DNA of 31,127 nucleotides from an uncultured Spirochaetota bacterium (GCA_963745235.1 CAVUXE010000020.1:1-31127); one strand, 5' to 3'; positions 5,883 through 31,127 are shown, numbered from the stretch's first letter. The notes: generated by a model not told the origin, from the sequence alone. Program-made: numbers and translations.

Positions 5883-7325
5883 ATGCAAGAGAAGCCTGAA
5901 AGTTGTACGTCCATCAGTATCCGTCATGCATCGATATTTTCTTTCCTCGTCTCCATAATCGTCTTCATGTCGACATCATGCTCGAGTGACGTTGCTTTCA
6001 ACAAGTCTTACTCCGCTGTCAACCGCTCGGCAGGGATTGAGAAGCTAATCTCGGACCTGGTTCGAATGGATCAGGAATACCCCGATCGTTTTCGGCTCAA
6101 GCGTGAAATCGGAGTGCTCTACCTCCAGAAGGGTGATCCTGTTTCCGCCGAGCCTTTTCTCAGACGGGCGCGCGCACTTGCCGGGGCAGCAATCACACCC
6201 TCGGAAAAGGCGACTCTCCTTGGCGGGCTTGCAATCGTCTCCTATGCCCGCGGGGAATATGCGCAGGCGGTACAGCTCGGGCGACAGGCGCTGTCCGTCC
6301 AGGCAGATGAATCTGCCGTTTTCGGTTTCATTACGGGGCGTGCCCTGCTCGCAGAGGGCAAGAATAAGGAAGCGCTCGAGTGTTTCGATACTGCCTGGGG
6401 GAAAGCGAAGGCGTCAATGGTCCGAGAGGACTATCGGGCCTATGCGCGGGTACTGGAGTCTGCCGGCCGTTACGCGGATCTGATTGCAGTTCTGGATTCC
6501 TATGAAGAATCGTTTCCGTATGAGCCCGGCCTCGGTCTCATGCAGTCGGAAGCCTATGAACACCTGGGAGATTTCGACGGGGCCGTCCTCTCGGCTTTCA
6601 AAGAAGCTGAGTACGGGGCGGCGTACGGCGCAGCGCGATCTTCTGACATCCAGAAGAATCTTGCAGCTCTGGGGCGCAAGCTGGATGACAAGGCGTTCAA
6701 TCCGGTTGGAAAGGGTAAGGCTGTCCTTCAAGCGGTGACGGCTTTCGCCAGGGAGGACTGGACCGCAGCCGCCAAGGTCCTGGAGGAACGCCAGGGCACG
6801 CAGATCTTTGAGAAATACCTTCTCCTTTCCGCGCGCATCGAAATGAAACACGCTGCCCCGTCGGACGTGGATGCTTATGCGGCCCTGCTGCCTTCCCTGA
6901 GGAGCCTCCCTCCATACTTCTACCGGCTGTACCTGGGGCTCAAGAGCCTGTCCGGGGTCAGCACGGACAGGCTGGCCGACTTTCTGGAAACAGCCATCGA
7001 TCTCGCCCCCATTTCGGACAGTGCTCGGACCTATCGGAAAGACCTGGCGGAAGTCCTTGGATTGTCGGCGTCGGAGGGTTCTCGAGTTCTGACCAAGGTG
7101 GAGCTCTCGGCTGTGGCAGAAAAGGCTGCCGCCACGGGAGAACCATCGTTGTTGGATCCATTGATTGGAACCCTGGATCTTAAAGACAACAGGTCAACGC
7201 TGATGGCCGTCGGAATACTTCGGGCATTTGCAAAGGACGCCAGATATAGACCATTTATCATAGATAGATCGAAGAAGTCGGCTGGGCGTGCCAGGGAGAG
7301 GCTGGATTACATCCTGGCAAACTAA
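5883..7325 (+). CDS. TPR-repeat lipoprotein (480 aa)
   Basis: Hydrophobic stretch ending in lipobox-like 'VFMSTSC'. TPR helices include 'EIGVLYLQKGDPVSAEPFLRRA', 'GLAIVSYARGEYAQAVQLGRQAL' and 'GRALLAEGKNKEALECFDTA'. Confidence 0.8.
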   Translation: MQEKPESCTSISIRHASIFSFLVSIIVFMSTSCSSDVAFNKSYSAVNRSAGIEKLISDLVRMDQEYPDRFRLKREIGVLYLQKGDPVSAEPFLRRARALAGAAITPSEKATLLGGLAIVSYARGEYAQAVQLGRQALSVQADESAVFGFITGRALLAEGKNKEALECFDTAWGKAKASMVREDYRAYARVLESAGRYADLIAVLDSYEESFPYEPGLGLMQSEAYEHLGDFDGAVLSAFKEAEYGAAYGAARSSDIQKNLAALGRKLDDKAFNPVGKGKAVLQAVTAFAREDWTAAAKVLEERQGTQIFEKYLLLSARIEMKHAAPSDVDAYAALLPSLRSLPPYFYRLYLGLKSLSGVSTDRLADFLETAIDLAPISDSARTYRKDLAEVLGLSASEGSRVLTKVELSAVAEKAAATGEPSLLDPLIGTLDLKDNRSTLMAVGILRAFAKDARYRPFIIDRSKKSAGRARERLDYILAN

Positions 7326-7342
7326 CGCGCCGGGAGGCGCCC

Positions 7343-8496: not shown

Positions 8497-8503
8497 CCGT
8501 CCC

Positions 8504-12652: not shown

Positions 12653-14163
12653 GGTTGCGATCTCTCTGCAAGGTCCTGGCGGCCGGCCTGTGCACAGGGC
12701 TTCTTGGCTGCTCCCTGTTTCTCGGTCTCGACGCCCTGAGGGTCACTGACTGGAGACCTCACGAAGCTCGGCTTGATGCAGCATCGGTGGACGAGATTTG
12801 GGTGGAGTTTTCCGCAGAGGTAGATGAGGCAAGAGCGGAGCAGGCCTTTTCCCTTTCAGAGAACGGTTCATCCATACCTGGAAGCTTTACGTGGAGCGGA
12901 AAGAGACTTCTATTCGCTCCTGCGCGTCCTGTTGGCGCGGGGAATGACTATGAGATAGCAGTCCTCTCATCCGCGGAGACCAGAGACGGCAACTCGCTGG
13001 CCAAGGACTTTCGGTTCGCTTTTTCGACCAAGGAAGAAACCGGGCAACCCACCATTGTCTCCTTTCAACCATCGGACGGCAGCATGGTGTCCATTCCGCG
13101 TGCCCCTGTTGTCATAAACTTTTCCGAGCCCGTTGATCACGCGTCCTTTATGGCTGCCTTCTCAGTCTCACCTGATCCCGGCGGGACAATCACTTTCAAC
13201 GCGAGCGGCTCGGTTGCCACTTTTGCGCCGCTCGCCGTTTGGATGCCCGGCACGGGGTACAGGGTTGTGATCTCCGACTTGCTGAAGGACCTTTCCGGAA
13301 ACCGGCTTCCTGCGGCGGTCACGTTCGGCTTTACGGCCGGCGCAGAGACAGGTCGGCCTTATCTTCTTTCGGTCCGACCAACTCTCAGCGGCATTCCGCA
13401 GGCAATCGCGCTGACTGCTCAAGATCCGAACGGCCAGACCCTCCAGATAAACTCCGGATTCGAGGCGAACTGGGGAATTGAGCTCCAGTTTTCAGAGCCA
13501 GTCCTCCGGGACAATATCGAATCTTTCATCGATTTCGAACCAGCGTGGGGGTCTCAGATCGATCCTTCCGGAACGCCCCGCGCAAACTACCTCCTTTCAC
13601 CCAAGGAGCTCTTCGTGTGGGGATCTTTCTACTGTTTGACAGTCAGGAAAGGGGTAATGGATATCAGCGGAAATGCAAGCTCCGTTGACACGCGATTCAT
13701 GATCAAGGCGGACGGACTCTCCACCAGGCCGCCCAGCGTGGAGCTGGTCAGGTTCCGCACCAATCCCGGCGACCCAAACCCGACATACGATGCATACACT
13801 GCCAGCAGCTCATTTTCGAACCTGAACCTTTCCAACTTTACTCCCGGTGTGGATGCGGTTTCCTGTTTCGATATCTATCTGCGCCTGGCCGATGGGGCAG
13901 CGGTGGACCCCTTCTCGCTCATGCACACATTTTCGGTGGCGGCGACCAACGGCGCTGCGCTCATTACGCCGATCGCGGTTGCTACCCAGGCTTTTACGGA
14001 CCCTCGACCGGTGCCCGTGTCCGGCCTTGCTCCCGCCAGGATATCCGTGAATATCACCAATACGGCAAACTCAGGTGTCGTTACTCTTGCGGTATCGAAC
14101 GGCCTGACCGACAGCAAGGGCAACAAAGCGGTGGCAGCATTCAGCCTGCCACTCCTGAAATAG
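12649..14163 (+). CDS. Second lipoprotein with tandem Ig-like (Big_5-type) domains
   Basis: Start reassigned to ATG 12649 (ATGA overlap), giving MRLRSLCKVLAAGLCTGLLGC (lipobox). Repeats such as 'PTIVSFQPSDG...VINFSEPVD...YRVVISDLLKDLSGNRL', 'LQFSEPV...VMDISGN' and 'LTDSKGN'. Confidence 0.85.
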   Translation: MRLRSLCKVLAAGLCTGLLGCSLFLGLDALRVTDWRPHEARLDAASVDEIWVEFSAEVDEARAEQAFSLSENGSSIPGSFTWSGKRLLFAPARPVGAGNDYEIAVLSSAETRDGNSLAKDFRFAFSTKEETGQPTIVSFQPSDGSMVSIPRAPVVINFSEPVDHASFMAAFSVSPDPGGTITFNASGSVATFAPLAVWMPGTGYRVVISDLLKDLSGNRLPAAVTFGFTAGAETGRPYLLSVRPTLSGIPQAIALTAQDPNGQTLQINSGFEANWGIELQFSEPVLRDNIESFIDFEPAWGSQIDPSGTPRANYLLSPKELFVWGSFYCLTVRKGVMDISGNASSVDTRFMIKADGLSTRPPSVELVRFRTNPGDPNPTYDAYTASSSFSNLNLSNFTPGVDAVSCFDIYLRLADGAAVDPFSLMHTFSVAATNGAALITPIAVATQAFTDPRPVPVSGLAPARISVNITNTANSGVVTLAVSNGLTDSKGNKAVAAFSLPLLK

Positions 14164-14172
14164 GCCGGGCTC

Positions 14173-17100
14173 ATGAGCGCGCTGATAGCCGCGGCCCTTC
14201 GTCATCCCGTTGGAACCATCATGATATTCATGGGCGCTATGATTCTAGGGCTCGCGGCCGCGGTAAACCTCCGGTTGGAGCTGCTTCCGGAGCTCGCCAT
14301 ACCGAGGCTTACCGTGTCCACGAGCTTCCCCGGGCCTTCCGGCCTCCGAGGTTAGATCTCTCATCACCATTCCTTTGGAGGATCAGCTTGCATCCGTGAA
14401 GAGCGTGAAGCGCGTGTTCTCCGTTTCCCGAGACAGCCTCTCCATCATCAGCCTGGAGTTTTCCTGGGGGGAGGACATGGTGTCCGCCGCGGTGCGGACT
14501 CGGGAGGGAATAGACGTTGCCTACGCTGCCCTTCCTTCGGAAGCTGGCAAACCGCAGGTGCTCCCCGCCGAAGCGGGGGAACGTCCCATAGCGATCATAG
14601 CAGTAAGACCGCGGGCCGGAGACCTCAGCTTTGCGCGCCGGCTGGGTGAACGGGAAATCAAGACGAGGCTTCAGCAAGTGGATGGGGTGGGATCCGTGGT
14701 CCTCTCAGGCGGTACCGTGGAGGAAGTGGTCGTCTCCGTGGACCAGTCTCTCATGGCTTCGAAAGGCTTGAGCCTGAATGACGTGGCAACGCTTGTCGCA
14801 AAGAACAACTATGATTATCCCACAGGCACGATAACGAAGGGAAATCTCGAATACCTGGTCAAGGCGTCAGGGACGGTCACTGATCTCGCGAGCCTCGGCC
14901 GGTTTCGTTTTGTCGGCAACCGTTCCGCGCTCAGACTTTCTGATATCTCCACCATCTCCCTGGCCCCGAGGGAACGGCTTTCCTTCTTCCAGGTTGATGG
15001 GTCCGAAGCCGTCGGCCTGAGCGTCATGAAAAGAAAAGGCGCGAGCCCGATCAAAGTCTCTGAAGGGTTGAAGCAGGAGGTGGCCAGGCTTGCCGCGGCA
15101 TATGGAAAGGACCTGGATATAAGCGTCGTCTCTGATGGCTCCCTATTCATCTCCGCTTCCCTTCGGAGCCTGGCTCTTTCGACACTAGGCAGGGTCCGCC
15201 ATCGCGTTCCTTGTCCTCATCGTCTTCCTTCGTGATATGAGGACCTCGGCTCTCCTCATGCTCTCTTTACCCATTGCAATCACCGTGACGCTGCTGGCGC
15301 TCCAGGTTTTCGGGAGGACGGTCAACATCATGTCCCTCGGGGGCCTTGCCCTCGCCATCGGGATGATCGTCGACAACAACGTCGTGATCCTGGAAAACCT
15401 CCAGAAACGACACCTTGGAGCTCGGGCTACCGCTGACAGCGTCCTGAGACACACCCTGGAGCTGGCGTCCTCCCGCCTGGGGTCTATGCTGACGCTGATC
15501 GTCGTCTTTCTGCCGGTCATCTTCCTCCCCGGTCTGCTCGGAGCACTTTTCACGGACCTCTCACTGTCCGTCATTTTCGCGCAGATCGCCTCCTTCCTGA
15601 CGTCGATATCGCTGATGCCGGTGCTTTTTCTGCTGCTGGAGCGCGGCTTTCCCCGAAGACGAAGGCAGGGCCGCCGGGCACTGCCTGACAGCATCTTCCG
15701 TCGCCTGCTCCTGATGTCGTTCAGGAAGCCGTGGACCGTTCCAGGCCTGGTAGTTGCGCTCACTGTCCTGGGCGTGCTCTGCGCCACCCGCCTCGGATTC
15801 GATTTCATGCCTGCCCAGGACACAGGCGAAATCGACGTGGCAATAGTGATGCCCTACGGGACTGCACTTGAGCGCTCGGCCGCCGTCAGCGCCGATGCCA
15901 CGCGGCTAATCCGCCGCATTCCCGATGTGCGCAGAGTCCACGCACGGGCCGGGGGCGAGCCTGAGGATGCCCAGTACTATGCTGATCCCGAAGAGCGTCG
16001 GGAGATCATTCACCTCTCTGTGGCCCTGAACAATCCACGTGTTCATCCGACTGCTTCGATTGCAGAAGCAATCAGGTCATCCCTCGTGATTGATTCGGCG
16101 GAAGTGAGTGTTGCGCTTCCCGGCTCTGTCATCGCTCCCCTTCTCGGTCTTGGCGCACAGGGGCGCGCAATCGTGGTCAGGGCGACCACGCAGGAGGAGG
16201 CTCGGCGCAGAGCGCAAACCATCTCCGCGCGGTTCGCACGCGGGGCGCAGGGAAAGCAGCTTGCTTCCCGCGTGACCGTTCAGCCGAAAGGGGAGACCAC
16301 CGAGGTTCGGCTGATCCCCGACAGGGACGCGATCACTCAGGCTGGATTGTCCCTCTCCGACCTTGCTGAAACAGTGCGAAATGCGATAACGGGAACGTAC
16401 CCCTCCCGTATGAGCATGGAAGGGCGGGAGCTCGATGTGCGCGTTCGCGTGGACCGGCGCCAGACATCTCGCCCCGAGGATTTGCCGGCGATCGTCGTGG
16501 GGACCCCTGAGGGCTCAGCGGCCCGGCTTTCAGCGTTGGTGCAGCAGCATTCCGAGTCGGCAGTGCCGGCTCTCTACCGCCGCGACAGAGCGGACGCCGT
16601 GATTGTGAATGTCGAGCCGGCTGCCGGCGGGAACCCCGGGGTGGCCGCTGAGATCGGCTCTCTGGAGAGGCGCTACGATTGGCTGAGGTCCGTTGAAGGT
16701 TCAGTCCTGACAGAGAACATCTCCTCCCTGATAGTGGCTTTTGCCCTGGCACTCGCGCTCCTCTACCTTGTCCTTGGCGCCCAATTTGAGTCGTTCCTCC
16801 TGCCAGCCCTCCTGCTGACAGCTCTTCCCCTTTCGTTCTCTGGAATAAGCCTTGCGCTGGCGCTTTCAGGAAAGCCAATCAGTTTTGACTCCGCCCTGGG
16901 AATCATCGTGCTGTTCGGTATCGCGGTCAACAACTCCATTATTCTCTATGAGACGTACTCCGCCCGCAGAAAATCGGGAGTCCCTCTCCTGGCCGCAATC
17001 TATCAGGGCACATCGGACCGAATGCGTCCCATCCTGATCACCATGCTCATTACCGTTCTTTCTCTTCTGCCAATCGCAATCGACTTCTCTCACACATCCG

Positions 17101-17225
17101 CGGAGAGCGGAATGGCCGTTGCCATTATTGGAGGTCTGTTCGTATCGACCATTCTCACGCTGTTCGTGCTGCCGCAGCTTTTTGCCCTCTACTTCCGCCG
17201 GAGCAGGCGACGTGGGAATCGCTAG
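14173..17225 (+). CDS. RND (AcrB-superfamily) permease 1, about 1,016 aa after repairing two +1 frameshifts
   Basis: N-terminus 'ALRHPVGTIMIF...LELLPEL..P'. Repair at ~14335 gives 'FPGLPASEVRSLITIPLEDQL'; repair at ~15189 gives 'TLAGSAIAFLVLIVFLRDMR'. Motifs 'NIMSLGGLALAIGMIVDNNVVILEN', 'AQFES', 'GIAVNNSII' and 'RMRPILIT'. Confidence 0.92.
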
Positions 17226-20200
17226 CCTGTACCGCAGGCCGGTTGCCTCCGCCACTGGCCTTCTCATCGTCCTCATCGTTTCGGGGGCAGTCATTGCGGG
17301 GACGCGTCTCGGCCCCTCCGGAGGAGAGGAAGGTGCCGCCTTCTCCGTCATTGTCGAGCATTTCGGAGTGAGTGCCAGAGAGATCGAGAGGACCATTACA
17401 CGCCCTTTGGAGGATGCCGCAGGCACTTTGCAGGGCTTGAAAAGCCTCCGTTCCATGTCGGAGTATGGCTCCTCGCGCGTCACCGCCTTCATGAGACCAG
17501 GGGCCAACAGCCGGGAAACGTATCTCCAGCTTCGAGATGCAGTGGACCGCGTGTACAGCGAGCTCCCAGAGTCAGTTCAACGTCCAAGGATACTCGCATC
17601 CGGGGAAGAAGCGCGCCCTGTCTTTATCGCCTCCGTGCGTTCTTCTTCAATGGAATTCGCTGATCTGGCCACCATGCTGGAAAAAGAGCTCAAACCCTCG
17701 CTGGAAAGAATCGAGGGCGCGAGCGAAGTAGAGGTGGGAGGCGGATCACCGCGGGAGATCCACGTTGAGCTTGATGAGAGGCGAGCCTCACGGGCGGGTC
17801 TGGATGCCGCCTCGGTTGCCCGGGCAATCCAGTCCAGCGAGCTTCTGGCTCCGCTCGGCACGGTCCGGGAAGAAGGGAACGAGCTATCCGTCGTCCTTTC
17901 CGGCAGATTGGGGGACCTGGCGGCGCTCAGCGGCTTGCATGTCCCTGCCGCGGAAAGCAGTATGGCACTCAGCTCCCTGGCAAAGGTTGAATACGCAGCC
18001 CGGGAGCGGGATGAGATCAACCGGGTGAACGGGACCGAAAATGCCGTGCTTGCAGTGAAGAGCACAGGGGGAGCCAACCTTATCGAGCTTTCCCATGCAA
18101 TTCGCAGTGAGTCAAAGAGGTGGGAAAAGAAGGGGCTTGCGTTCGACATCATCCTGGATGCGGGGGCAGCGCTGGAGAAATCCCTTCGAAGCATTCTGGA
18201 AGCCATACTCTTTGCGGTTCTCGTCTCCGCTGCCACATTGCCCATTTTCATCTCCGGCGCGCGTCGGATTCTTGTCTTGTCCGCGTCGATACTTGTGATC
18301 GGTTTTGCGAGCGCGGCTGCGATCTCAGCGGTCGGGTTCAGTCTTGATACCTACATCCTCTCGGGGCTTGCCATCGGGATTGGAACCATGATCGATACCG
18401 GTATCATCATCGCCGGCCGGGCGATGCCGGGCATGAGCCGGGATGCATACTTCGCGGACGTGGAGCGCATCATCCCCGCTCTCCTCTCTTCCACACTGAC
18501 GGCTCTTATCGTGCTGATACCCCTCCTGGCCCTTGATTTCGGCGGCGGAGGGATCCGAGAAGTATCGCTGTCCCTGGCGGCCTTGATGGGGATTTCATTC
18601 GTTCTCTCATGTCTGTTCCTTCCGTCCTATGCAATTGGGACGCGAAAGGGCAGGCGCAACGGTGTGCACAAGCAAAAATCTGCAAGAGGCCCCATACATG
18701 CCATTCGCCGCAGCGCGCAATGGATCGCCAGGCGAATCATTACCGCCTGTGCTGCTCGTTTCACATGGCCGCTGGTAGCCGGGGCAGGCCTGGCCGCGCT
18801 CGGAATATGGGCGGTTGCATCCATCGGCATCGACCTGGATCCTCCGCCGCAGACAGATTCCATTCCCGTCCATGTTGAATGCGAAAGCGGAGCCTCCATC
18901 GAGTCCGTGGATGCCTGGACGTCTTCATTCAGCTCCCGGCTGCAAAAGACTCGGGGAGTATCAGTAGTCCAGAGCACAGCCAGGCGCGGGAGCGCAGAAG
19001 TGGAAGTGGGCTTCAACGCATCTCTCGTAAATCGCGAGGTCCTATCGAAAGCAATCAGGACGGACGGGCGCGGCATCCCCGGGGGGTTTGCTTATCTCCC
19101 CGAGGGTGTCGGAGCGACAGAGAGGGCTTTGGAAATCGCAATCACTGGTGATGATGATGCCACACTCAAGGAGTATGCGTCACAAGCTGCGCAGCTTCTC
19201 GGGGGGGAAAGCAAAGTGAAGGAGGTCGTTCTCAACTTCAAGGAGCCGGCACCTTCCTATGTGTTCAAGGTTGATCCAGAGCGTGCCGCCGCAGCCGGAG
19301 CTACCGCCGAAGCGGTGGCTGGCGCATTGCGCTGGCATCTGTACGGCCCTGTCGCCCTCAAATGGATATGCGAAGAAAGGGAGATGGACCTCCGAGTCAT
19401 GGGCACGCGGAGCACGGAGCCAACTCTCCTTGACCTCGCCAAGGTCCCTGTGCCAACCGGAAACGAAAGCACGGTGCCTGCTCAGGCAACGGGGGGGTTT
19501 TTCCTGTCGGGGGAGGGAGGCAAGCTCTATCGGTTGAACCGGCAGCGGGTGGTCTACCTGACCGCGCACATGGAAGCGGGGGACATCGGGCAGATAGTGC
19601 GTGGGGTCGAAAAGACCCTCAGTTCCCTGAGCATGGCGCCCGGGTACGCGCTCGAGGTTGGAAGAGATCTGGTGGAGCAGGCGGAGCGGTTTCAGACCCT
19701 GTGGGTGACATTTGCTTTATGCACAATGCTTGTCTATCTGGTCCTGGGCATTCTCACCGAGTCATTCCTCTGGCCGCTTGTCATCCTTGCCGTCCTTCCC
19801 GCCTCTATAACCCTCCCGCTCATCATTATGAAGCTGACCGGCCAGCGCCTGGTGGAGCCAGTCCTCATTGGTCTGATCGTGTTGAGCGGGATGGCGGTGA
19901 ATAATTCCATCCTCATTGTGGATGCCTATCGCGCGGGAAGCCGGGCAAGGGAGGCCAGCGCGCGGAGGGCGTGGCTCTCGGCGTTCTGCGGCTGGTCTCA
20001 GTGCAGTGACGGATGCTGTCCTTTCGCGTCTCTCAGCCCTGACTGCCACATCCGGGGTAACGGTCCTCAGTCATTTCCCCCTTCTTTTTGCAGCCGGGCA
20101 GGGGGCAGCTTTCATGCGGTCCCTCGCGTTTGTCATAATTTGGGGCATCGCCGGGTCATATGCGGCCACTGTTTTCCTCACCCCGGCTCTGCTGAGCCTG

Positions 20201-20269
20201 GCGGCGAAACGGCCGCCGAACAAGGTACAGGCGCTTAAGGGGAAATTGCAAAATGAGACATTGGGCTGA
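17212..20269 (+). CDS. RND permease 2, divergent, about 1,018 aa after one +1 frameshift near 19950
   Basis: Probable GTG start at 17212 ('VGIASLYRRPVA'), overlapping permease 1. Motifs 'GVSAREIERTITRPLEDA', 'LAIGIGTMIDTGII', 'LTESFLWPLVIL' and 'GMAVNNSILIVD'. TM11-12 continue in the 19916..20269 frame ('SRLSALTATSGVT...MRSLAFVIIWG'). Confidence 0.88.
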
Positions 20270-20298
20270 TTGCGATCTACACAAGTAGGAGCTATGTT
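20270..20298 (+). promoter_or_regulatory. Candidate internal promoter for the giant gene
   Basis: TTGCGA (20270-20275), 17-bp spacer, TATGTT (20293-20298), in the only sizeable (72-bp) gap of the operon. A GGGGGA RBS precedes ATG 20342. Confidence 0.4.
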
Positions 20299-20341
20299 CT
20301 CGACGTATTCTTGAAAATGTCTCCTCGGCCACGGGGGAAAT

Positions 20342-23300
20342 ATGAAAGTGCATGCGGTCTTGGGAACTCTTCTATCCGTTGTCCTTGCGCTCGCCCTGAC
20401 CGCTTCCGCGGCCGCGCAGGAGTTGCCTGGCAGCGTCAAGGGATTCAAGAAAGAAACGCTGGAAGTCTACTTCAACCGGGCCGACCTCGAGCGGGAAAGT
20501 TCTGCCTGGGAGAGAGTTGCGAAGCTCGGCGCAGAGGCAGCGATTTCCCAGTGGGAGCGGGAAGCAACCGAGCTCTATTGCGACGCGCCACAAGCCGCTC
20601 AGGCCCGAGATCAGCTCATCGGTTGGGCAGGCCGTCAGATGGAAGACCGCTATGAGAAGTGGCTGACACGGCGGTTCTTCGAACGCGAGGGGGCCTTGGG
20701 GGCCGAAGCGGTCCTGCGCGCAATCTCAGCGGCGGACCTGCAGTACCTGTATAGAACAGATGAGTCTGGAAACGTTCTCCTTGACGAAGCCGGAGACCCC
20801 GTTCTGCGCGAAGCAGACGGGCTGCAGGCGGATCGGGAGGGCTGGAAGGCGAAAGTAGCTTCTGCCTCTGACGCTGTCCTTGCCGCGTGGGAACAGAAAG
20901 TTGACACGGCCTTTGCCCCTGAGCTTGGAGACCTCCTGGGTCCTGAGGCGCTCTCGAAATTCGGGGAATACAAGGCGAACGAAAAGGCAGGCTTGCGTCG
21001 TGAGATGGAGCATGTTGCGTTGCAGGGTGAGCTTTCACTCGCGGCAAGAAGACTGTACGACCAGTATTCCCTTCGCAAGAAGAGCGAAACGGCGACCGCT
21101 GATTCAATTGCGGACCAGATCGTCAAAGAGACTCAAACTCACACGGCCCAGGGAATTGCCCAGATCAAGGCCGGATTGAACTTGGCGCCTGACGCCGTGG
21201 ACATGGCCGCTCCCAACATCGAAGCTCAGAGGTGGCTTGAGAGCTTCAAAGCGGCTTTCGAGAAAGGACTCTCCCAGTGGGATACAGCGGAGGAAAAGTT
21301 CCTTGTCAGCCGAATGGAATGGGAACGGGATGCCGGCAAATCCTATTCCGAAGGGGAGAAGGCGTGGTCAACGGCGTTCGAAAAGCTCACAACCGCGCGC
21401 AAGGGTTGGGAGCAGGAGGTAGACCAGCTCCTGCAGACAGGCGCCGCGAAGTGGGGTCAAGCGCGTTCTGAGCTATCGAGTGCAATCAGTGGAGCTCGAA
21501 CGGAGTTTCAGAACGAGTGCACCGAGCGTTTGAGCGCAATGCAGGATCACGTAGGTGCACTCGTTGACATGTATGCGCAATCCGCTCAGGTCGTTTCAAC
21601 AGCCGTCTCTTCGGGCCAGGAGCTGATCAGGAAGCTGAATATACGGGATGGGAACGGAGAGTACGTGAAATGCTCCCCGGACGCGGATCCAGCAATAATT
21701 GCTTTCCGAAAGCAGCAGTGGAGCGGATACATTGCGGGATTGAACAATGAGATCGCGAGCCTGAATCAGCAAAAGGCCTCTATCCCGGCTTGGGTTGAAC
21801 AACACCTGGAGATGGCAACGTGGCTCCCGATGTTGCAGGGCTACGCGGACACCCTCCAACGACTGAATAGCGCGATAGGGACGAGAACAGCGCTCGTCAG
21901 CTTGATGAGCTCCGTCGACCCTGGCGCGTCAGTCCGGGAGGCGAATCCTACGCTGAATGAAGTGTTGAACGCCTACCTGGAATATGTGACCAACACCGCG
22001 GGAGATCCCAACAGGGCAGCATCGGTCCAGGCGGACTGGGAGCGTCTGGGCCGTCTTGGAGATTGGCTCACAATGATTGACACGTACAGCGCGCAGGCCG
22101 CCACCGCAAAGCAGCAGATGCAGGAGGCACTGGGGAGCGCTTTCGGCAGTGATGCCTCAGACTTGCGGGACGTGCTCAAAACAGACTCCGATGCGGGAAT
22201 CACGTATCTCGATGAGTATCAGCTCGAGCTTCTTCGGGCCAAAGCGGTTCAGGACTACTGGACGCAGAGGAAGGCGGTTGCAGACGCGGTTGTGGCCTAC
22301 GCTCAGGACATCTCAAGCGGCAGGGCCACCGAGGATGAGGGAGAAAAGAATCTCGCCTCGGCCCGCTCAGCATATGAGGCTCAGCTTGCTGATTACAACA
22401 GGGTCTTGAACGAACTGAGGTCGAAGGGGGGCAATCTTGATTCCGCCCGCCAGAAGCTTGAAGCGGCGCAAGACGCAGTGGGCGCAGCCTCGACAACATA
22501 CGAGGAGACGCGCCAGAAATACATGACCGCGCTTGCCTCCTCCCAGAGCGGGAACGTGGATTTCTACAAGAAGCAAATGGAGCAAAAGTACAGTGAGCTT
22601 CTGAGCGCAGGCGGCATGACCGCATCGGACACCGGGCTTGCAGATGCCGCAACGGAGTATTACGCAGCCGCGCGACGTTACGGCTATGACCTTGCAGTCA
22701 ACAGCGCGTGGGCCAAGGCATCGGAGCTGGTAAGAGGAAACCCTGAGTCCAGACTCCTTTCACTTGCGGACCTCAAAGCCGCGGCGGAAAAGCTGCGGGT
22801 GCCGGCTTCGACAGATGAAATTCCCGCGGATATTGAAGGTCTTGGCGTTTCCCTTGACTCCGCAAACTACGCAAAGGTTTCCGCTCTGTTTGGTGCATGG
22901 AAAGGTGCTGCAGGAGACGCCCGAACGCAGGCGGCATGGAAGCTCCTCCAGTACCTGGGAGTCATCGCGGCTGACGCCAACCAGGCATGCGTCCAGAGGC
23001 TCGCGCTGATACGGGCGTACGGGGCGGCAGATGCTGTTACGTGGTATGCCGAATCTGGCGGAAAAAGGACTGACGGGAAGCTGGAGGAGCGTTTGTCAGC
23101 CGACTCTGCAGCCGCGGCCCTGTCACTGATAGAGGCAAGGGCGCATGTTGAGATTCTGGGGTTGGAGGCGTGGCTCGATTTACAGAACGGACAGACTCCA
23201 TCTGACAAGGACGCGTTGATGCTCGCCCAGTCCGCGCAGGAAGGACTAAGCCAGGAAGAGGCACAGAGCCGTATTGAGATGCTCGCTGCTTTGATTTCAG

Positions 23301-26300
23301 ACCTCAACGGCGCTTCCGCGGATGTGTTCGGTGCAACCTCGAGGCTGAGAGCTCTGGCGAGAAGCGGCGGTTGGATTCAATCATTTGTCGGCGGCGCGGG
23401 AAGCTTCGTTGACTCTCAGGCTGGGGATCTGACTCTGACGATGTGCACAGACCAGTACCAGGAAGCCAACCGAGCCCAGGCGCTGGTCTCAGCATGGATG
23501 AATGCTTCTGTAAACAGCATCGCGCTCGTAGCAGAAAGGGAAGCATCAGCGCTTGATTCGATCAAGAAAGTCTTCTCGGATCATCAATTGAGCCTCAAAG
23601 ATGACGACGCACTTCCGTCCTCGGAAGACGTGGCTACCATGATCAGGCTTTCAGACCCGGATGAGGCCGCGACATTCGTTTCTGAGCTTACTCAGGCGCT
23701 GCAGGAAGCGGCCTCCACCGGGCCGCGCTGGTTGGCAGACCGGATCAGGGATTACTGTTCCGCCATTGCCCGGGTATGCCGCGGCGGAGGCTGGAAGCCA
23801 CGTATCAGCGCAAACGGCTTCAGTAGAAGCCGCGTCCGCCGAGGCAGCCGCTGCAGCAGATTCATCAGCCAGGTCAAACCTTCGAACGCTGGCGGAGGAG
23901 CTCCAAGGGGGATCCCGCCTTTCGGCGCTCATGGAGTTGTACACTCGAAACGACAAGCCGTCCGCTTCGGCTGCGTCCGCCCATGATCTCATCGTCGACT
24001 CAGGGGCAATTGAGGCTGCAAAGAGATCGCTTGCTGATCCTTCGATTTCCCTTCAGAGCATCGCCGCCGATCTCGCGCCCGGAATGACAACCATGCTTGC
24101 GAGTGAGATCGCTGCTGAAGCTCAGAAACTGCTTGATGCCCAAAAGGGTCAAGGACCAACAGGCGAGCGGGTCGCCGCTTTTCGAACCTGGAGCACCCTC
24201 AGTGTGTCTCAGGCAATCGCGGGACTCGTTGTGAGCTCCTTTGCCGCCGACGCGAAGAGACTTTGGGACGAAGTTGCTTCGAAGACCTGGTCCAGCCAAC
24301 AGCTATTGAGCGAAGCCCTCGCCGGCTACCTTGCCAGTTGTAGCGAAAGCAGTCCCGCATCGGATCAGATCAAGCAGCTCTGCTCGCAGTTGGAGTATGG
24401 TCTTGATGATCGGGATGCCCTTTTCCGCAGATTCTTGTTTGGAAGTGACTTCGATGCGCGTCTGTCATCGCTCGCAGCCATGGGAGCTGCGGGAACGGTC
24501 TACCAACGAGCAATCGCTCTGACAGTCGCCTCGCAATCCAGTGGCGCTGTATCAGGCCGGCAGCTCGCGAGTTTCCTGCTGGATCGGACGGGGATAACCG
24601 GCGTAGCAGACGCAGCTGATTTCGCGGGCACAGCGTCTCAACTGGAGCAAACCGCTTTCTCAGGAAGCGGAGACCTCGCAGTCGAGTACTTGTGCAAGAA
24701 CCTTGTTCTGCGAGGCGTTTCGATTCCTGAAGACCTCGAAAAACAACTTGCCAAGAGCTCAGCCGCTACTGAGAAAGTGAATCAGTTCAAGGAAATGCTG
24801 GGGAAGGTCCGGGGATATGTCGCTGCCTTGGACGGAAACGCCCAAGCCTACGCGCAGTCTCTGGGCGGGGACTTCATGTCTCGAGACGCACTCGCGGCCT
24901 CAATTTCCGCCGGACAATGGAATGATGATCTTTTTGCTGCAGGCTCGAACGCCGACTACCTGAGCTGGTACGATCAGATGAATGCTTCGAAGCTTGACGC
25001 TGCAGGGCAGATGATCCTGGAAGAGCTTGCGCTGGCGTCCGTGGATTTTAGCAGCAAGTCGGCTGTCCATTCAGCCGAAGCGTCCTATTGGCGTCAGGTG
25101 GAACGGCAACCCAGCCAGGCCACCTCTTGGCGCGTGTACCTGACCGGAAACGTCGGAACTTCGGTGACTGTGGAAAGCGCAACCAGCGCTCAGACACGGG
25201 ACGGGAACGGTTATGTCCAATGCGTTTCGGATTCCGCAGAGAATGTCACCCTTGATGCGTTCAACTCCCTCGCGCAACAGGAAAATGCTTTCGTGAGTCA
25301 GCTTGCGGCAACCAGGGATGATGGCGGTTCCGTGGCCCGATTTCGTTCATTCCTGGAGGCCTTCGCGGCCGGGAATGCCAAGGCGAGCGACCTGCCGGTG
25401 TCGAGCGAGCAGGAAGTGAACGCGGCGGAGGGCGCATATCGCTCTGAGCTTGCCAAGGTGCAGTCGCTGAAGGATGACATACGCCGCTTCGGAGAAGCCT
25501 TGAAGTTCCTGGACCTGGGTAGTGAAGAGCGCCAGGCAGAGTTGGATGAGCTGAGGAACAGCGCGGATAATCTTGCAATAAAGGTGGCAAACAAGCAGGT
25601 CTTGGTTGATACGGCGCTGGGGGACTTCGAGGGACAAGGAGCCCTCTATAACACTGCCTACGCTGAATTGCAGATATCTTCGGAAAGCCTGGAGAAAGCG
25701 CGCTTCATGCTTCGGGTCAGTGAGGAGATACAAGACTGGGCTTCAAACGGCTACCTGACCTCGCGGGGAGAAGCGGCCCAAAGCTACCAGAGCCCCGTGC
25801 AGATGCAGACAGATGTTTCCGAGAAGCTCACTCGTGCCGCAGCGGCGGTGGATGCGCTGAAAGAACTGTACGGCGAGTCACCTGTCACGGACAGACCGAT
25901 TGGTGACGCAGCCACTCTGGCCGCATATGACGCATGGAAAACGAGCTATGCCGAGCTGTTGCGGTTGAAGCGAGTCACCGGCGAATTGGATGAGGCAACC
26001 ACGGAACAGGGGAAAAAGGTCGAAGAACAGTTCGAGTCGCTCCAGAAAGCGAGGGATGCAATTCTTGACGGGTCCCGGGTGGATGCAAACCTCACATGGT
26101 CGGATGACGAAACAGAAAGAGCAGGCAACTGGACCAGCTATTTGACTTTCCAGAATGGTCGGCTATCGTTGGACATTTCCGTCGATTTCAAGTTGCACGC
26201 GCAGCAGACCAAGGATGAGTGGCAGACCGTCAAGGACTATTTCGACGTCCGAGAAGCTGACGGCGGGGATCCCGCGGAGGCCGCCGCAAAGAGTGACTTC

Positions 26301-29300
26301 GAGCGCCAGATGGAAGCATGGCAGACAACTGTGAACACCTATGCCGCGAAGTTCGGCGGCATGAGCGCACTGATTGACCGCTGGGGCTTTGCTGCAGATT
26401 ACCTCAAGCGGCGGCTGTATGACAGCAACGGGAGCGGGTCGCTGGGCTATCTCGAAAATTATCAAAGTGACGACAAATTCATGCGAGACAACAACTACCT
26501 GGACATCCACACCAGCGGTGAGGATCTCAGAGGCGCCGCCCGCGACTGTCTGAGAGCCGCAGTGACATTCGCCCAGTCTCAATACTCGGCAGTAATGGAG
26601 AACGCCGATGAAAGGGACGCATTCGAGTTCTATTTTGCAGTCCGCATAGCGAGCGCTGGCGGAAACGAAAATCAGTTTGACCAGTTCAATTCCCGAACAA
26701 GCGCTTCAGCCTTGCGAATGCTTACGCAGAGGTTGCAGGATACCATAGAGAGGCTTCGCGCCAACCGCCGTGCTCCATTCGGCTGGATTTCGGACGCTGT
26801 CGCGGATTGGACCGGGCAAGCAAGTGCCCTTGACAACAAGAAGGGGGACATTGAAACCCTCCTGAATGGCTTTTCTCCAAACATCCTTGGAAGCTCAATA
26901 TCAACGTTCACCCAGGCAAGGCGTGACTACGAGTCCGGTTGCGCACGGCTTGCCGAGCTGAGAGGGACTGACGGGGCTCATTTGACTTCCGTGGAGGACT
27001 TCCTGTCGCAGTATCGAAAATTAGCCGCCCAGAGCCAGGGCATTGCAACCGACCTGGCGAGGGTCTCCTCCGAGCTGGAGGCCCAATTCCGCTCGGCATG
27101 GAGTGTGCTCGCGGCGGAAGACAAGGTGTCCTTCAGCAAAGCGCTGCAAGAGATGACTGTTGTGGCAAGTGTGAATGCTGAAGACGCTCGTGGGAAGACC
27201 GTACTCGCAGCTCAGGCAGCGGAAGCGAAGGCAGCGGATGCGCAGCAAGCCTATCGATCCGCCTACGAGGCTTATGTCGCGGGGACCGGGACGAAAGCTG
27301 ACATGTTGGCAGCTGCAAAGAGTGCCTATAGGGATTCACTGTGGGTCGCAAAGGCTGACCAAGAGCTCCTGTCCGGCGTCCTTGGTGACGCTGCATTCTC
27401 TGCTGGCGTACTGCTCAACGACTCCGAGTCCAACACCAGGATGAACGCGCTTCAAAGCTATGCCCAGGCCGTACTTTCTGTTTATTCAGGAGCGCTCAAA
27501 TCGCGCGAGACGGAGTTGGAGCAAAAGTGGGGTCAATCCGTGCAGGACCTCGGCAGCCGCCAACAGACCTGGTACGCACAAGTTGGTCTTGTTCGGGCCA
27601 AGGCGGCCAGCGCCTGGGATGAAAGCCAGCAAAAGCTGCTCGAAGCGTTTGGACAGTGGCGGGAGGGCTTCCAGCAGGAATATGGCGACAAGAGTGATGC
27701 GTGGAACGTTGCCTACCTTGGCCTCGTGGAGAAGAAGGATGATTGGGTGCAAGCCACGCGGGAGAAGGCAGCCAAGGCAGGCAATGAGGCCATTCTCGGC
27801 GAGGTGGGTGCAAGCGCGGATGACAGTTCGCGAAGCGCGAGCACGCTTTTGATCGGGGACATAAGTTATGACCCGAAGGAGGCCACAACGAAGGTTCAGA
27901 CGCTCCTTGCGGAAGTAGGGAGCGGACAGTCACTTACGGCGCTGAAGCGGATGAGCTCGGGGATTGCGCCAGAGTCGGTGACGGTGGCCAGCGGGAAACT
28001 GGGAGCGGACACCAGTGGCGCGCGGATTGCCAGCGAGGTGAAGCGCTTTATCGCAACAAGCAGGAAGGAGCTCTCGGCGTTGGCGGCTCGGGGGTTGGCA
28101 GATGATGCCCGAACGAGCGTGGAGGAAGCGAAGAAGGCGCTTTCTGAGAGTGTGAAGGAAGCGAACAAAGGCTTTGAGAAGAGCATGGATGAGGTGTTTG
28201 TCACCGTTGGGTACGGGACGGGCGGAGGAGAGTACAAGCGGGAGGCAGTGAAACGGAGCACGCTCATCAGCGGTCTCATAATGGAGACGCAGCGGGTGGA
28301 GGCGTACCGGTGGTATGCGATGCCGAGGCTGGAGCTGAAAGTGGATTTGAGCCAGGGGAGGCTGAACGGTCTCGAGGCCGGGGCGGTGATGGATCTTGTC
28401 GGCATAGCGCAGGAGGAAGTCGGGGAGCAGCAGAATAGGATCTTCGGGGAAGGGAAGAAGCTCACGGACGCAGAGAAGAGGGCCAAGGGGCTTGTGTTCG
28501 AAATCACAGCAAACGGAGAGGCGAAGACCAAGGAGCTGGGGGAGGGGGAGTTTGGGCAGTGGGTGGGGTATTCGCCAGAGTTCGCCAAGGAACCTGACTT
28601 CGACAAGTCTCAGAACGACAACATAGTTGTGCAGGGCAAGGGGGAACTGGGGCGCCTGATGGGCGCTTTCATCTGGAATCAGACGAAGGAGGCGCGGGGT
28701 TGGTCGGAGGTGCAGAAGCCCACGTGGGACAAGGCGCTCTGGGACGACACCGGCAGCTGGTTCAAAGCCCCAAGCTTGAGAACCGTGGGATCGATAGCCG
28801 CAGGGGTGGTAGCGACCCTGGCAACGGGAGGGATCGGGGGGATTGCCGGAATCGTGGCCACTGCCGCGATAAGCACATCAAGCACGCTTCTGTTTGACAC
28901 GCTGGATGTGGTGAGCGGCTACAAGACATGGGAAGAGGCAGGGCTGGATATAGGGAAGAGCTTCCTGACGAGCGCGGCGACGAGTACGGTAGGGGGCGTG
29001 TTCAACGGGTTCAATCCGAAGGAGGTCGGGGGGATCGCAGGAGCCTTGGGAGATTTCGGCAAGGCGCCCATCGGGAAGGCGCTGCTGGCCGGGGCGCAAG
29101 GTTTTACGACGAACACTGCCACCAGTGCGCTCAGCGCGTTCTCTTGGAGCAACGGCAAGCTTGGGTGGGACAAGGACGCGTTCCTCACGGGGTCGTTTGG
29201 GACAGGAACGTGGGCGAGCGTTGCAGGGGCCTCAGGAAGCGCGTTCACCAGCGGGCTGATGAGCATGGCGAACATGGTGGATGGGAATGGCACCATCCTC

Positions 29301-31127
29301 AGCAGTAATGTGTTCAATACGAGAGGGATTAGTAGCTTCAACAACCTGACGGGAGGCCTGGTCTCAACGGGTATACAATATGGGATGACTGGGGACGCTA
29401 CGTTGAACCTGATGAACATAGCTGACTTTGGCAGCGAAAGGGGTTACGGACTGCTGGAGATGCACCTGGACAAAGCAAGGGTTCAGCATGAACCTGGGCA
29501 GTAATGGAACGAATGTCAGCTTGGGAACAATCGCTTCGAGCATGGGCGGGGTTGGCGAATCGTATAAGATCACCGAGGCGAAGTATGAAAACCTGCAGGG
29601 GGATAAGCCTGCACTTACGACATTGAACTCGGCCAATGGGCTTGGCTACACCGACAACAAAGATAACTATCAGTTGGCGAAGGATATTTTGAACGGGAAC
29701 AAGAATGTCGTTTACTATAACGCATCCACTCCAGCGGTCACAACGCAGGACCTTGCCGCGCTTGCCTATGCAGGAGATGACGGGAAGTCGATTTATGTCA
29801 ACTCCAAGCTGCTTGGCGGAAAAAGAAGGGGCCGCGCAAGTTGCATCAATCATGTCTCATGAAGCCAAGCACCTGGCAGGGAAAGATGAGTTCGAATCAC
29901 GGATGACGGAGACCAGTGCGTATTCCGATTTGATGAAGGCGTGGGGCGTGACCGGAGCCGGAGACGAGGATACAGGGCTCGCCTGGGGCGCAAGCATGCT
30001 GCGCAAGATAGGGGCCGGCGGCTATGGGTTTGTGCTTGACGCGCAGATCGCTAGCCTTCCTGTCAGCTCAAGTGGAAGGGTGTACGACCAGGCGCCGGCA
30101 CAGGACTCGGGGTCCTTGCGCAGACTCAATTGCGACGGGCTATAACAAGCACGAATACGGAATCGAACAAGCTTTGGGATTATCTGGTTCAATCAGGTGA
30201 CAAAGGAAAGATAGCTGACATTCTGTGGGACAGTGGTACATTCTCCAATTTCACTGCCGGCGTTTTGTCTGAAGAAGCCGATGGCAGTGCGTTTGCGCTG
30301 CTGGGCGGCCTGCGTGATGCGTTAAAGGACTCCACGGACTTTGCCGCCGGAAGTATCCTCAGCCACGACATGCTTCAGTACACGACAAACGTGTTCCGCG
30401 GCAGCAACGGGATGAATGGGCTTTCAGGGGCGTTATTCCTGGCGAACCTCGCATCGGAGGACGTGGTACGAGCGGGAAATGCGAACGGGTATTTGATCAA
30501 CGATGTGGCGCGGACGTACGAGGGGGAATATCTCAATATTAACTACGACAGGACTGGGGCCATCGCCGGCGATCTGACTGGAGCGCAGTACTACATGAAC
30601 TTCAATCTCAAAGGCCCGGGGATGGCCAGGCGATCACCGGGTATTTCAATTGGCCATGGGTTAGTTCACCGACCAGTACCCCATCGCTGGATTGCATTGG
30701 ATATGTCAACACAGTGCTGTATGCGTCCGGGGCCCAAAGCCGGGCTAGCTCTAAATGCAAGTGTCAAGGGCAATAAAACTGAGGTTGGCATATGGTCGAG
30801 GGAATACACATCAGCGCATGCTGCTCAGTTGGACACGGAGTCGGGAATTGTGGCAAATGGGCTAAGTCGCACTTTCCTATATGGCGGGTGGCCTCAGATG
30901 GTTGCCGACAAGAAGCAGGCGAACCAGTACGTGGGGGGCGTGTTGCTTGCCTATGGAGATGATCGAAAGACATGGAGCGACACCCCTCAGGTAGGAGACC
31001 TCGTCTTCATGCAGGGGCATGTTGGGTTCTATGGTAGTAAACGATCTCGGGCAAAACATCCTGAGTACATAGCGCACCGCGGCTGACGGGCTCGGCGGGA
31101 CGACATATGGAGCAGGTCCGAGAGAGA
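20342..31127 (+). CDS. Giant secreted helical protein, candidate polymorphic toxin (about 3,580 aa or more), fragmented by small frameshifts; 3' end uncertain (TGA at 31086 or beyond the window)
   Basis: Sec signal peptide 'MKVHAVLGTLLSVVLALALTASAAA-QE'. Five overlapping + strand ORFs (20342..23986, 23661..29504, 29428..29862, 29705..30145, 30130..31086) join through small indels at ~23770, ~29473, ~29822 and ~30120-30150. Each upstream fragment decays into non-protein-like sequence exactly where the next frame becomes protein-like. Confidence 0.82.
21233..21454 (+). repeat. Trp-periodic helical repeat, block 1 (six Trp, spacing 15-14-15-14-15)
   Basis: W-LESFKAAFEKGLSQ-W-DTAEEKFLVSRME-W-ERDAGKSYSEGEKA-W-STAFEKLTTARKG-W-EQEVDQLLQTGAAK-W. 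Confidence 0.85.
27528..27746 (+). repeat. Trp-periodic helical repeat, block 2 (six Trp, spacing 14-15-14-15-14)
   Basis: W-GQSVQDLGSRQQT-W-YAQVGLVRAKAASA-W-DESQQKLLEAFGQ-W-REGFQQEYGDKSDA-W-NVAYLGLVEKKDD-W. Confidence 0.85.
29780..29935 (+). other. HEXXH zincin-like metallopeptidase motif within the giant protein
   Basis: After removing one A at ~29822 the frame reads 'KSIYVNSKLLGGKEGAAQVASIMSHEAKHLAGKDEFESR'. HEAKH lies at 29858-29872. Confidence 0.65.
30620..31086 (+). other. NlpC/P60 (papain-like) cysteine hydrolase domain at the C-terminus of the giant protein
   Basis: Frame 3 reads 'SLDCIGYVNTVLYASG' (Cys codon 30693-30695); frame 1 reads 'TPQVGDLVFMQGHVGFYG'. Confidence 0.7.

Follow-up and report, generated by a model that had tools for sequence, protein, structure and literature searches.

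Introduction

RND tripartite machines are textbook small-molecule pumps. In MdtABC-TolC and MuxABC-OpmB, an adaptor, two adjacent RND permeases and an outer-membrane factor are encoded in one operon. The same arrangement was found in a 31,127-base stretch of DNA from an uncultured Spirochaetota bacterium (GCA_963745235.1, CAVUXE010000020.1:1-31127; the whole stretch is referred to below as the window), where it is joined by lipoprotein genes and a gene for a giant protein. The window is the entire contig C20 of a genome of 5.85 Mb in 104 contigs (85.7% complete, 5.9% contamination), and related loci belong to metagenome-assembled genomes (MAGs) of uncultured Spirochaetaceae, Treponemataceae, Spirochaetia and Spirochaetota. 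An earlier, sequence-only reading of the window had described ten co-oriented genes, encoding two TPR lipoproteins, a small lipoprotein, a TolC-type outer-membrane factor, an adaptor, two Big_5 Ig-like lipoproteins, two RND permeases and the giant, and had proposed that they serve the secretion or display of a polymorphic toxin. Coordinates, strand and families agreed with this description on re-analysis. That the ten genes form one accessory module conserved across Spirochaetota, whose machine exports or displays the giant as a polymorphic toxin, is in our estimate an evenly balanced proposition.

The module permeases resemble those of MdtABC and MuxABC in length (about 1,020-1,040 aa) and in their full ACR_tran matches. 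Unlike MdtABC, the module has a permease pair that lies outside the MdtB/MdtC clade and in which D408 and K940 (AcrB numbering) are replaced in both members; it also has two conserved Big_5 and two conserved TPR lipoproteins, and a giant is linked to it.

Two precedents were taken from the parts of PMC8277102 consulted here. MacAB-TolC expels the Sec-exported heat-stable enterotoxin II from the periplasm, and SecDF, which belongs to the RND superfamily, draws on the proton-motive force to move polypeptides by pulling; together they make RND-driven export of a giant conceivable. Enterotoxin II secretion resembles the route considered here in its two steps, Sec followed by a tripartite pump with a TolC duct, but the engine MacB is an ABC and not an RND protein, and its cargo reaches ~10 kDa, compared with about 300-450 kDa for the giants. 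SecDF has its RND superfamily membership in common with the module permeases, but its place of action is the inner membrane, together with SecYEG, and it lacks both adaptor and duct, whereas the module permeases have the full AcrB-type architecture.

In the LapA/LapBCE system, too, a giant protein goes with an adaptor and a TolC-like pore, and surface display is conceived of as retention of its N-terminal part in that pore (bioRxiv 10.1101/198937, in the part consulted). Unlike type I secretion and LapA, the window has no ABC transporter and the giant has a cleavable Sec signal, and the module is therefore not a type I system; neither RTX repeats nor a C-terminal secretion signal were detected in the window's giant. 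With CdiB/CdiA and other polymorphic toxins the module shares a very large exported protein with a conserved N-part and an exchangeable, putatively toxic C-terminus; a candidate immunity gene follows. Pfam finds a TPS domain or an Omp85 partner neither in the window nor in 35 giant homologues, so the module is not two-partner secretion; the body of the giant is, moreover, predicted to be helical, unlike the beta-helical CdiA. PAAR/VgrG, WXG/LXG and Rhs were also not found by Pfam in the window. The absence of ABC ATPase, Omp85/TpsB, type VI secretion and tail genes, on which the sequence-only reading had relied, was borne out among the other window open reading frames (ORFs) scanned with Pfam and NCBIfam. 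Type VI Tae/Tai pairs consist of cell-wall hydrolase effectors, which are small and fired by a contractile machine, and periplasmic immunity proteins; here the predicted wall hydrolase, which likewise has a signal-bearing neighbour, is the tip of a Sec-exported protein of at least 3,000 aa.

The 2012 survey of polymorphic toxins (PMC3482391) lists, in the portion consulted, the trafficking modes T2SS-Sec only, T5SS, T6SS, T7SS, PVC, TcdB/TcaC, PrsW and MuF. The Sec signal of the giant falls under its 'T2SS', and the other trafficking domains were undetected; RND, TolC and AcrB are not mentioned in the first 300,000 of its 357,715 characters. The giants do have the architecture of polymorphic toxins, that is, a conserved N-part and diverse, exchangeable C-terminal domains.

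Co-occurrence and linkage of giant and cluster

Presence of the giant and of the cluster was scored in 401 Spirochaetota genomes from 153 genera. The giant was called by its N-domain (E ≤ 1e-10) and the cluster by Big_5 lipoprotein b (profile A3), an orthologue being the best match at E ≤ 1e-45 in a frame of 450-620 aa; matches were collated by hand, and a 1,220-aa Big_5 paralogue in three genomes (G089, G196, G433) was set aside from the marker count. Marker figures come from the best 150 of 476 matches, and the unlinked counts are upper bounds. Orthologue-level markers were found in 97 of the 401 genomes. Both genes were present in 74 genomes and neither in 302, while 23 had the marker only and two (93% and 85% complete) the giant only. 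Among 41 near relatives, 11 of which gave orthologue-level matches to Big_5 b, nine had both, two the giant only (60% and 87% complete), two the cluster only (69% and 78%) and 28 neither. Giant and cluster occur in the same eight of 24 genomes of genus g24 and together in 17 of 75 genomes of family f27, where one further genome has the marker only; four of 20 genomes of genus g1 are carriers. Several genomes have two or three giants (G252, G358). A giant that almost never occurs without the cluster is the pattern expected of a cargo that depends on the machine.

Where linkage can be judged (48 genomes), marker and giant lie within 20 kb on one contig in 42; 24 of the remaining both-carriers have them on different, mostly short contigs, and two are unplaced. 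The synteny TolC-MFP-Big_5-Big_5-RND-RND to which the sequence-only reading had drawn attention recurs across the phylum, as a rule next to a giant gene of over 2,600 aa: 14 of 20 diverse giant loci carry this set within 20 kb 5′ of the giant, usually with TPR genes, and the exception is L047, which has no RND gene in the flank. At least five cluster orders or orientations were distinguished among diverse loci, at G+C contents of 31-65%. In G000, G002 and G014 the cluster stands immediately 5′ of the giant on the same strand, and the two also share their orientation in a Treponemataceae MAG. In G035 the orientation is again shared, except for an inverted TPR1; in G017 and G031 cluster and giant diverge. 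G019 and G024 have the cluster on a different contig from the giant, without a neighbouring giant there. A separate search with a single peptide pattern gave only eight related loci, which says little on the range outside the phylum.

The earlier reading had allowed that homologous clusters might usually lack the giant. This is not the usual case, as 74 of the 97 cluster genomes have an N-domain, but up to 23 of the 97 are without a detectable giant. Flanks were inspected in ten marker-only genomes. A divergent giant of 2,602 aa stands right after RND2 in G179, the contig ends just past RND2 in G046, G060 and G263, and no giant was seen on the 17-kb contig of G364; four further genomes are taken up below with the points against export.

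It is very improbable that the neighbourhood is no more than inherited synteny without a functional link. Many of the genomes are related, and the two loci are apart in six of them, as such synteny would allow; the order and orientation of the cluster, however, vary between lineages while adjacency stays, and presence or absence is concordant in 376 of the 401 genomes. Functional coupling of giant and cluster is well supported, and the near-obligatory genetic dependence of the giant on a distinctive RND clade is new as far as we can tell.

Three side observations belong here. In two genomes of 1.5-1.7 Mb (G185 and G285, loci L091-L094) the TolC, adaptor and Big_5 genes are kept, the permeases are fragmentary and no giant is present; the set may be a decaying copy of the module. 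A Big_5-containing paralogue of 1,220-1,266 aa (E 1e-52 to 1e-57) occurs away from the cluster in family f27, at G089:C19, G196:C4, G130:C33, G147:C31, G101:C1, G154:C1 and G433:C17. Finally, a 706,055-base contig labelled 'Candidatus Bathyarchaeota archaeon' MAG (L032) carries, with many frame breaks, a giant 53% and an RND2 fragment 76% identical to those of the window; the archaeal label on this locus suggests mis-binning or mislabelling.

The giant protein and its exchangeable tips

Searched against 1.84 billion representative proteins, the N-domain profile matched 418 clusters with E ≤ 0.001, of which 220 also satisfied E ≤ 1e-30, and the matched region invariably lies at residues about 1-450 of family members. 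Complete members measure about 2,650-4,170 aa and are named 'hypothetical protein' or 'M23 family metallopeptidase [Treponema sp.]' at their sources. This large, uncharacterised family of giant proteins, represented by those 418 clusters, is new as far as we can tell. In alignment A1, 40 columns, many of them Trp, are invariant in seven N-termini. All seven aligned homologues have, as judged by eye, a hydrophobic N-terminus ending near Ala-Gln, which upholds the Sec signal that had been assigned to the giant. The first 1,136 aa of the window's giant have relatives in 11 of the 41 near relatives, in open frames of up to 3,945 aa, one of 3,636 aa among them. The predicted fold of the N-domain is entirely helical (pLDDT 77.7, pTM 0.39). 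A Foldseek search of the PDB with this model found no neighbour at E ≤ 0.001. Its best-ranked entries, spectrin repeats at E 0.2-1, are taken to reflect no more than a general helical resemblance.

The hydrophobic, Gly-rich segment of the window's giant has equivalents, as hydrophobic peaks 733-786 aa from the C-terminus, in the giants of G002 and G019. Cys makes up 0.37% of the giant bodies compared with 1.4% of the long ORFs of the genome; this fits unfolded export, but the background is crude and the figure was not used. The HExxH motif was considered as a general releasing protease and rejected as a family feature, being present in only 13 of 86 full-length members. A search with the tail P0001 against the sequences of solved structures gave no match.

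The variability that had been expected of the C-terminus was found, and the next gene varies with it. Giants of the window and of G002 are 56% identical at the N-terminus; homology stops just past HExxH, the last 440-480 aa are unrelated, and the G002 giant ends in Peptidase_M23 (E 2.2e-13). Single-linkage grouping of the C-terminal 450 aa of 86 full-length members gave 28 groups, of 17, 16, 14, 5, 4, 3, 3, 2, 2 and 2 members plus 18 singletons. Pfam was run on 27 of these 86 and recognised C-terminal domains in six, nothing in 20 and a weak, irrelevant Sec8_N in P0121. The recognised domains are M23 (P0011, and weakly P0038), NLPC_P60 (P0086, and weakly P0022), Peptidase_M15_4 (P0044) and Pre-toxin TG (P0151).

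The window's own tip had no direct match in Pfam or the PDB, and its profile A4 gave only a chance row against solved structures. By HHalign it is homologous to the P0022 C-terminus (probability 99.4%, E 2e-21), and the P0022 region in turn scores 21.6 bits (E 2.2e-4) against NLPC_P60 (PF00877), just below the cut-off of 23. A Cys and two His are conserved in the window tip. ESM Atlas returned NlpC/P60, CHAP and endolysin-like clusters at a score of 0.82, which serves as a lead only.

Downstream genes were examined at 22 loci, 20 from across the phylum together with contigs C78 and C95 of the source genome. At all 22, a gene at or just past the stop of the giant encodes a product of 140-400 aa with an N-terminus that, as judged by eye, is signal-, lipobox- or transmembrane-like. 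Downstream proteins are related in five of seven tip-related locus pairs and in 11 of 231 pairs overall (Fisher p 1.8e-6 for the tip association, in kin that are not independent). A Gly-zipper tip (L082) is followed by a multi-transmembrane downstream protein. The downstream protein of the source genome has 16 homologues, and in two cases tip homologues and downstream-gene homologues were found on equal-sized contigs (24,309 and 7,284).

As far as sequence can tell, the giant and its next gene have a polymorphic toxin-immunity layout, and the recognisable tips are mostly predicted cell-wall hydrolases with tip-specific, signal-bearing neighbours. The tips would then be toxic, and the downstream proteins would confer immunity. 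The resulting catalogue of unassigned candidate toxin domains and candidate immunity proteins is new as far as we can tell.

Alternatively, the giant might stay in the periplasm or inner membrane as a helical scaffold on the machine that remodels the producer's own wall, with the downstream protein as its regulator. Such a scaffold would accord with the Sec signal, the all-helical N-domain with its non-significant spectrin-repeat rows, the hydrophobic segment resembling a transmembrane helix, and a separate M23 gene just 5′ of the cluster; the recognisable tips, too, all act on peptidoglycan, which is present in the producer's own periplasm. A housekeeping wall enzyme, however, would not be expected to divide into 28 tip groups over 86 members, or to come with a Pre-toxin TG domain and tip-specific downstream genes, nor do the pairing of a Gly-zipper tip with a multi-transmembrane protein and the patchy distribution within genera (eight of 24 in g24, four of 20 in g1) speak for it. 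We regard the scaffold as quite unlikely.

At four loci (L070, L075, L076 and L085) the downstream proteins are leucine-rich-repeat-like (…NITDEAFVHF…, …ITDKGLTYLK…), and three of the four giants share one unassigned tip type ending …SFYYLRR. The two are a candidate new toxin-immunity family pair.

The RND permease pair

A tree was built from 49 sequences: 22 RND1, 19 RND2, AcrB, MdtB, MdtC and CusA of E. coli, and the four other RND proteins of the source genome, the outgroup being small. RND1 and RND2 each form one clade (SH-aLRT 91 and 100) within a joint clade (99), and AcrB, the Mdt proteins and the genome's own paralogues group at 95. The pair is thus not nested among the ordinary pumps sampled, as the sequence-only reading had allowed it might be, but forms a clade of its own, apart from AcrB, MdtB, MdtC and the four other RND proteins.

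Among the permeases linked to giants, D407 is present in all but one, and R/K971 and T/S978 are conserved. D408 is retained in three of 22 RND1 and one of 21 RND2 orthologues, and position 940 is Asn in 17 of 22 RND1 and 19 of 20 RND2. In the window, the relay positions read D N N R T in RND1 and D T N in RND2; the RND2 of G002 has D T N R T. AcrB, MdtB, MdtC and three of the genome's other RND proteins have D-D-K-R-T, CusA has D-A-E-R-T, and the fourth other RND protein, on C27, has P at position 940. Neither RND1 nor RND2 therefore has the AcrB-type proton relay (D407, D408, K940, R971).

The operon contains the parts of an RND tripartite pump, namely ACR_tran permeases, an RND-type adaptor and an outer-membrane factor. 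The permeases score ~265 bits each against the multidrug family NF033617, short of its cut-off of 1,250, with frame breaks lowering the scores somewhat. RND1 also has a weak SecD_SecF_C match (E 2.9e-6).

In G017, G019 and G005 (L016, L039, L043) the order is RND2, inverted TPR1, RND1, and in these alone RND1 has a canonical D-D-K relay and RND2 does not. This may be a pair of 'live plus dead' permeases, unlike the rest of the family.

Proposed route across the envelope

The machine would be an envelope-spanning, tripartite-pump-like assembly of an outer-membrane factor, an adaptor and an anciently duplicated RND pair with a non-canonical relay, to which the two Big_5 Ig-like and two TPR lipoproteins would also belong. 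A giant polymorphic toxin of about 2,600-4,500 aa, with a conserved helical N-domain, an extended body that is likewise helical, a hydrophobic segment rich in Gly and, as its exchangeable tip, a domain that mostly resembles a cell-wall hydrolase, would enter the periplasm by Sec, and a cognate periplasmic or membrane immunity protein would be supplied by the gene just downstream. The machine would take over the giant in the periplasm and pass or anchor it across the outer membrane; recognition (as an address) or retention (as an anchor) would fall to the conserved N-domain, and the toxic tip could then reach neighbouring cells. Contact between giant and machine, passage through the TolC-type duct and the source of energy are parts of the scheme that we infer, as is export from periplasm to outside through the RND/MFP/TolC machine as a whole.

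Several observations weigh against this scheme. According to the parts of PMC8277102 consulted, the cargo of periplasm-loading tripartite machines is at most about 10 kDa, for the MacB type, whereas the giant is ~380 kDa, and no protein-moving RND tripartite pump is on record there. Both permeases are without two residues that AcrB needs for proton coupling. Marker and giant are far apart on one contig in G101 and G315, and lie on different contigs with an empty 20-kb flank in G157, G233, G356 and G416. Four marker-only genomes (G044, G204, G313, G413) have well-covered flanks with no giant, and a cluster that sometimes occurs without the giant implies that the machine may have another, or primary, function. 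The co-occurrence counts include genomes that are kin to one another and therefore exaggerate how many independent events lie behind them. The hydrophobic segment of the giant (Kyte-Doolittle mean 1.6-2.1) could hold it in the inner membrane, and the assignment of the window tip to NlpC/P60 is an indirect, sequence-based call on a tip with a predicted fold of pLDDT 31.

Alternatively, the machine may be an exporter of small molecules or lipids, or a pump that maintains the envelope, on which the toxin system depends only indirectly. Its task could be to clear fragments of the wall, to export a cofactor or a surface lipid, or to shield the producer, and the giant would cross by other means or not at all. 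All four core parts belong to ordinary pump families, up to 23 of the 97 cluster genomes show no detectable giant (four of those inspected having clean flanks), and the silence of PMC8277102, as far as consulted, on protein-moving RND tripartite pumps is in keeping with such a role. We nevertheless consider an indirect pump unlikely. Only two of the 76 genomes with a giant lack the cluster, and both of these are incomplete; within genera, giant and cluster come and go jointly (the same eight of 24 in g24), and their linkage outlasts repeated rearrangement. The permeases form a separate clade with an altered relay, and four conserved accessory lipoproteins are not something that an ordinary pump is known to require.

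As to export or display proper, the pump-like gene set and the giant may constitute an undescribed export route for very large toxins. We advance it tentatively, at somewhat less than even chance, that this is a new system for secretion or display, found solely or mainly in Spirochaetota, in which a one-Asp RND pair threads or anchors the giant via a TolC-type duct, helped by the adaptor and the Ig-like and TPR lipoproteins. If so, RND permeases would for the first time be seen to drive the export of a protein, and polymorphic toxins would have one more mode of trafficking, a claim that we likewise put on the doubtful side of the balance. No description of an RND-linked giant protein in spirochaetes was found in the full-text literature searched, most subscription journals lying outside it, and literature searches found no paper on a bacterial-competition weapon specific to spirochaetes.

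Should an RND lineage export or display proteins of 300-450 kDa, diderms would have one more route for protein across the outer membrane, and it would have to be explained why the proton relay is altered and what the four accessory lipoproteins do. Spirochaetes, a phylum with host-associated and environmental groups, would gain a bacterial-competition weapon of their own. The question is directly testable in any culturable carrier.

Frame breaks in the window

In the window RND1 is split over three frames, RND2 over two and the giant over five or more (broken twice, once and at least four times, respectively). Contigs from four public soil and peat runs of three studies were compared with the window over 14000-31127, and all seven frame-break intervals contain an indel that is absent from these independent contigs. 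The other contigs have one base fewer at 14328 (four of four runs), 15188 (one run; the other three have no depth), 19943 (two runs, X1 and X2) and 23769 (four runs), and extra bases at 29467, 29470, 29820, 30105, 30621, 30735 and 30738. RND1 thus has two one-base insertions in the window, near 14328 and 15188, and RND2 one near 19943. Contigs C78 and C95 of the same genome carry copies of the 3′ part of the giant with 99.0% and 98.5% identity, which differ from the window mainly by indels of 1-2 bases in short G/C runs and concur against it at 29469/70, 29820, 30106, 30621 and 30735/8; in the C95 copy the frame is open for 1,109 aa up to the stop. In the relative G002, both permeases (1,018 and 1,092 aa stop to stop) and a giant of 3,635 aa are uninterrupted. 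Because the independent contigs and G002 are free of the breaks, RND1, RND2 and the giant are intact in nature and the gene count of ten stands; the frame breaks of the window are assembly indels.

Decay of the system in the source genome into an array of pseudogenes, which seven frame breaks across RND1, RND2 and the giant would suggest at first sight, is scarcely credible: every break is a 1-2 base indel missing from the four public runs, and C78 and C95 agree with each other and not with the window, at indels that lie in short G/C runs.

Over 14000-31127 the assembly has about one indel per 1.5 kb, and an IS66 transposase on C78 (L001, 48-1539) is likewise split in two frames. Other apparent pseudogenes of the source genome should be treated with the same caution.

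The 3′ part of the giant is present three times in the genome, at 23875-31127 of the window, 5038-12463 of L001 (C78) and 5924-9254 of L002 (C95), with 98.5-99% identity, compared with a single N-domain match. The copies part ways from about window position 31020 onward. The genes downstream of the C78 and C95 copies are 51% identical overall, with the last ~70 aa identical. The flanks differ: C78 has IS66 and a group II intron reverse transcriptase, and C95 a PIN gene and beta-lactamase-fold genes. The three copies may be paralogues, strain variants within the bin or displaced cassettes.

Gene layout of the window and neighbouring genes

The features of the locus are collected in Table 1. Of fifteen window frames submitted to Pfam, nine were placed; the six without a family comprise the small protein and the giant in its five pieces. 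The lipobox-like N-termini (…SGC, …SSC, …WGC, …LGC) and the AAA|QE signal of the giant were judged by eye.

Table 1. Features of the giant-linked RND cluster, with positions counted from the first base of the window.
Feature	Position	Strand	Remarks
Promoter-like site TTGACT-18-TACAAT	5811..5840	+	10/12 consensus positions; 43 nt 5′ of first gene; consensus match only
TPR1, 480 aa, lipobox-like N-terminus	5883..7325	+	Pfam TPR_14, TPR_16, TPR_12; in NCBIfam only sub-cut-off TPR chaperone matches
TPR2 lipoprotein (…AMSGC), 221 aa	7343..8008	+	TPR_19, E 6e-13; kept in distant clusters
Small lipoprotein (…VLSSC), 163 aa	8005..8496	+	lipobox-like N-terminus by eye
Outer-membrane factor (TolC type), 467 aa	8504..9907	+	PF02321 OEP, two stretches, E 4.8e-28
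Periplasmic adaptor (MFP), 448 aa	9904..11250	+	TIGR01730 RND_mfp, 190.5 bits (cut-off 94.9); HlyD_D23, E 8.9e-30
Big_5 Ig-like lipoprotein a, 473 aa	11231..12652	+	PF13205, E 9.4e-20
Big_5 Ig-like lipoprotein b, 504 aa	12649..14163	+	PF13205, E 5.6e-33; used as cluster marker
RND1 permease	14173..17225	+	ACR_tran (PF00873) on both pieces, E 7.4e-44 and 2.6e-104
RND2 permease	17212..20269	+	ACR_tran (PF00873), E 1.2e-95; true C-terminus in frame 19901-20266
Giant protein	20342..31127, off contig end	+	~3,650 aa judged from intact C95 copy
Signal peptide (…TASAAA|QE, about 20342-20416) and all-alpha N-domain (~450 aa)	20342..21691	+	alignment A1
Hydrophobic Gly-rich (GxxxG-type) segment	28794..28905	+	Kyte-Doolittle 19-residue mean 1.63; about 830 aa before C-terminus
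SHEAKH (HExxH) motif	29855..29872	+	homology to G002 giant ends there; Peptidase_M48 only E 0.024
Variable C-terminal domain, putative NlpC/P60-like	30130..31127	+	scrambled by three indels in window
Cys motif LDCIGY	30687-30704	+	Cys invariant in 4 homologues covering region
His motif GHVGFY	31015-31032	+	GH[IV]GFY…HSAP; His invariant in 4 homologues covering region

The close packing of the genes was confirmed by direct reading of the sequence, with ATGA overlaps at 8005, 9904 and 12649 and overlaps of 20 nt at 11231 and 14 nt at 17212; no terminator-like site was found in the 72 nt between the RND2 stop and the start of the giant. TPR1 is kept in clusters phylum-wide and is frequently inverted. 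The small lipoprotein was assigned to no family by Pfam or NCBIfam, and orthologues were found only in the close relatives G002, G014 and G020. The outer-membrane factor scores 34 bits against TIGR01844 (cut-off 225), and the adaptor has a long predicted coiled-coil stretch. Big_5 lipoproteins a and b are paralogues with 27% identity; the Big_5 profile gave only weak matches to solved structures, namely N-terminal residues (about 6-123) of L,D-transpeptidases and TssM.

The genes 5′ of the cluster are unrelated to it and encode an Rce1-like protein, a GH5 cellulase, a STAS protein and a separate M23 peptidase. The last of these, Peptidase_M23 of 349 aa (E 3.1e-30), lies at 4225-5274 on the plus strand, just 5′ of the cluster.

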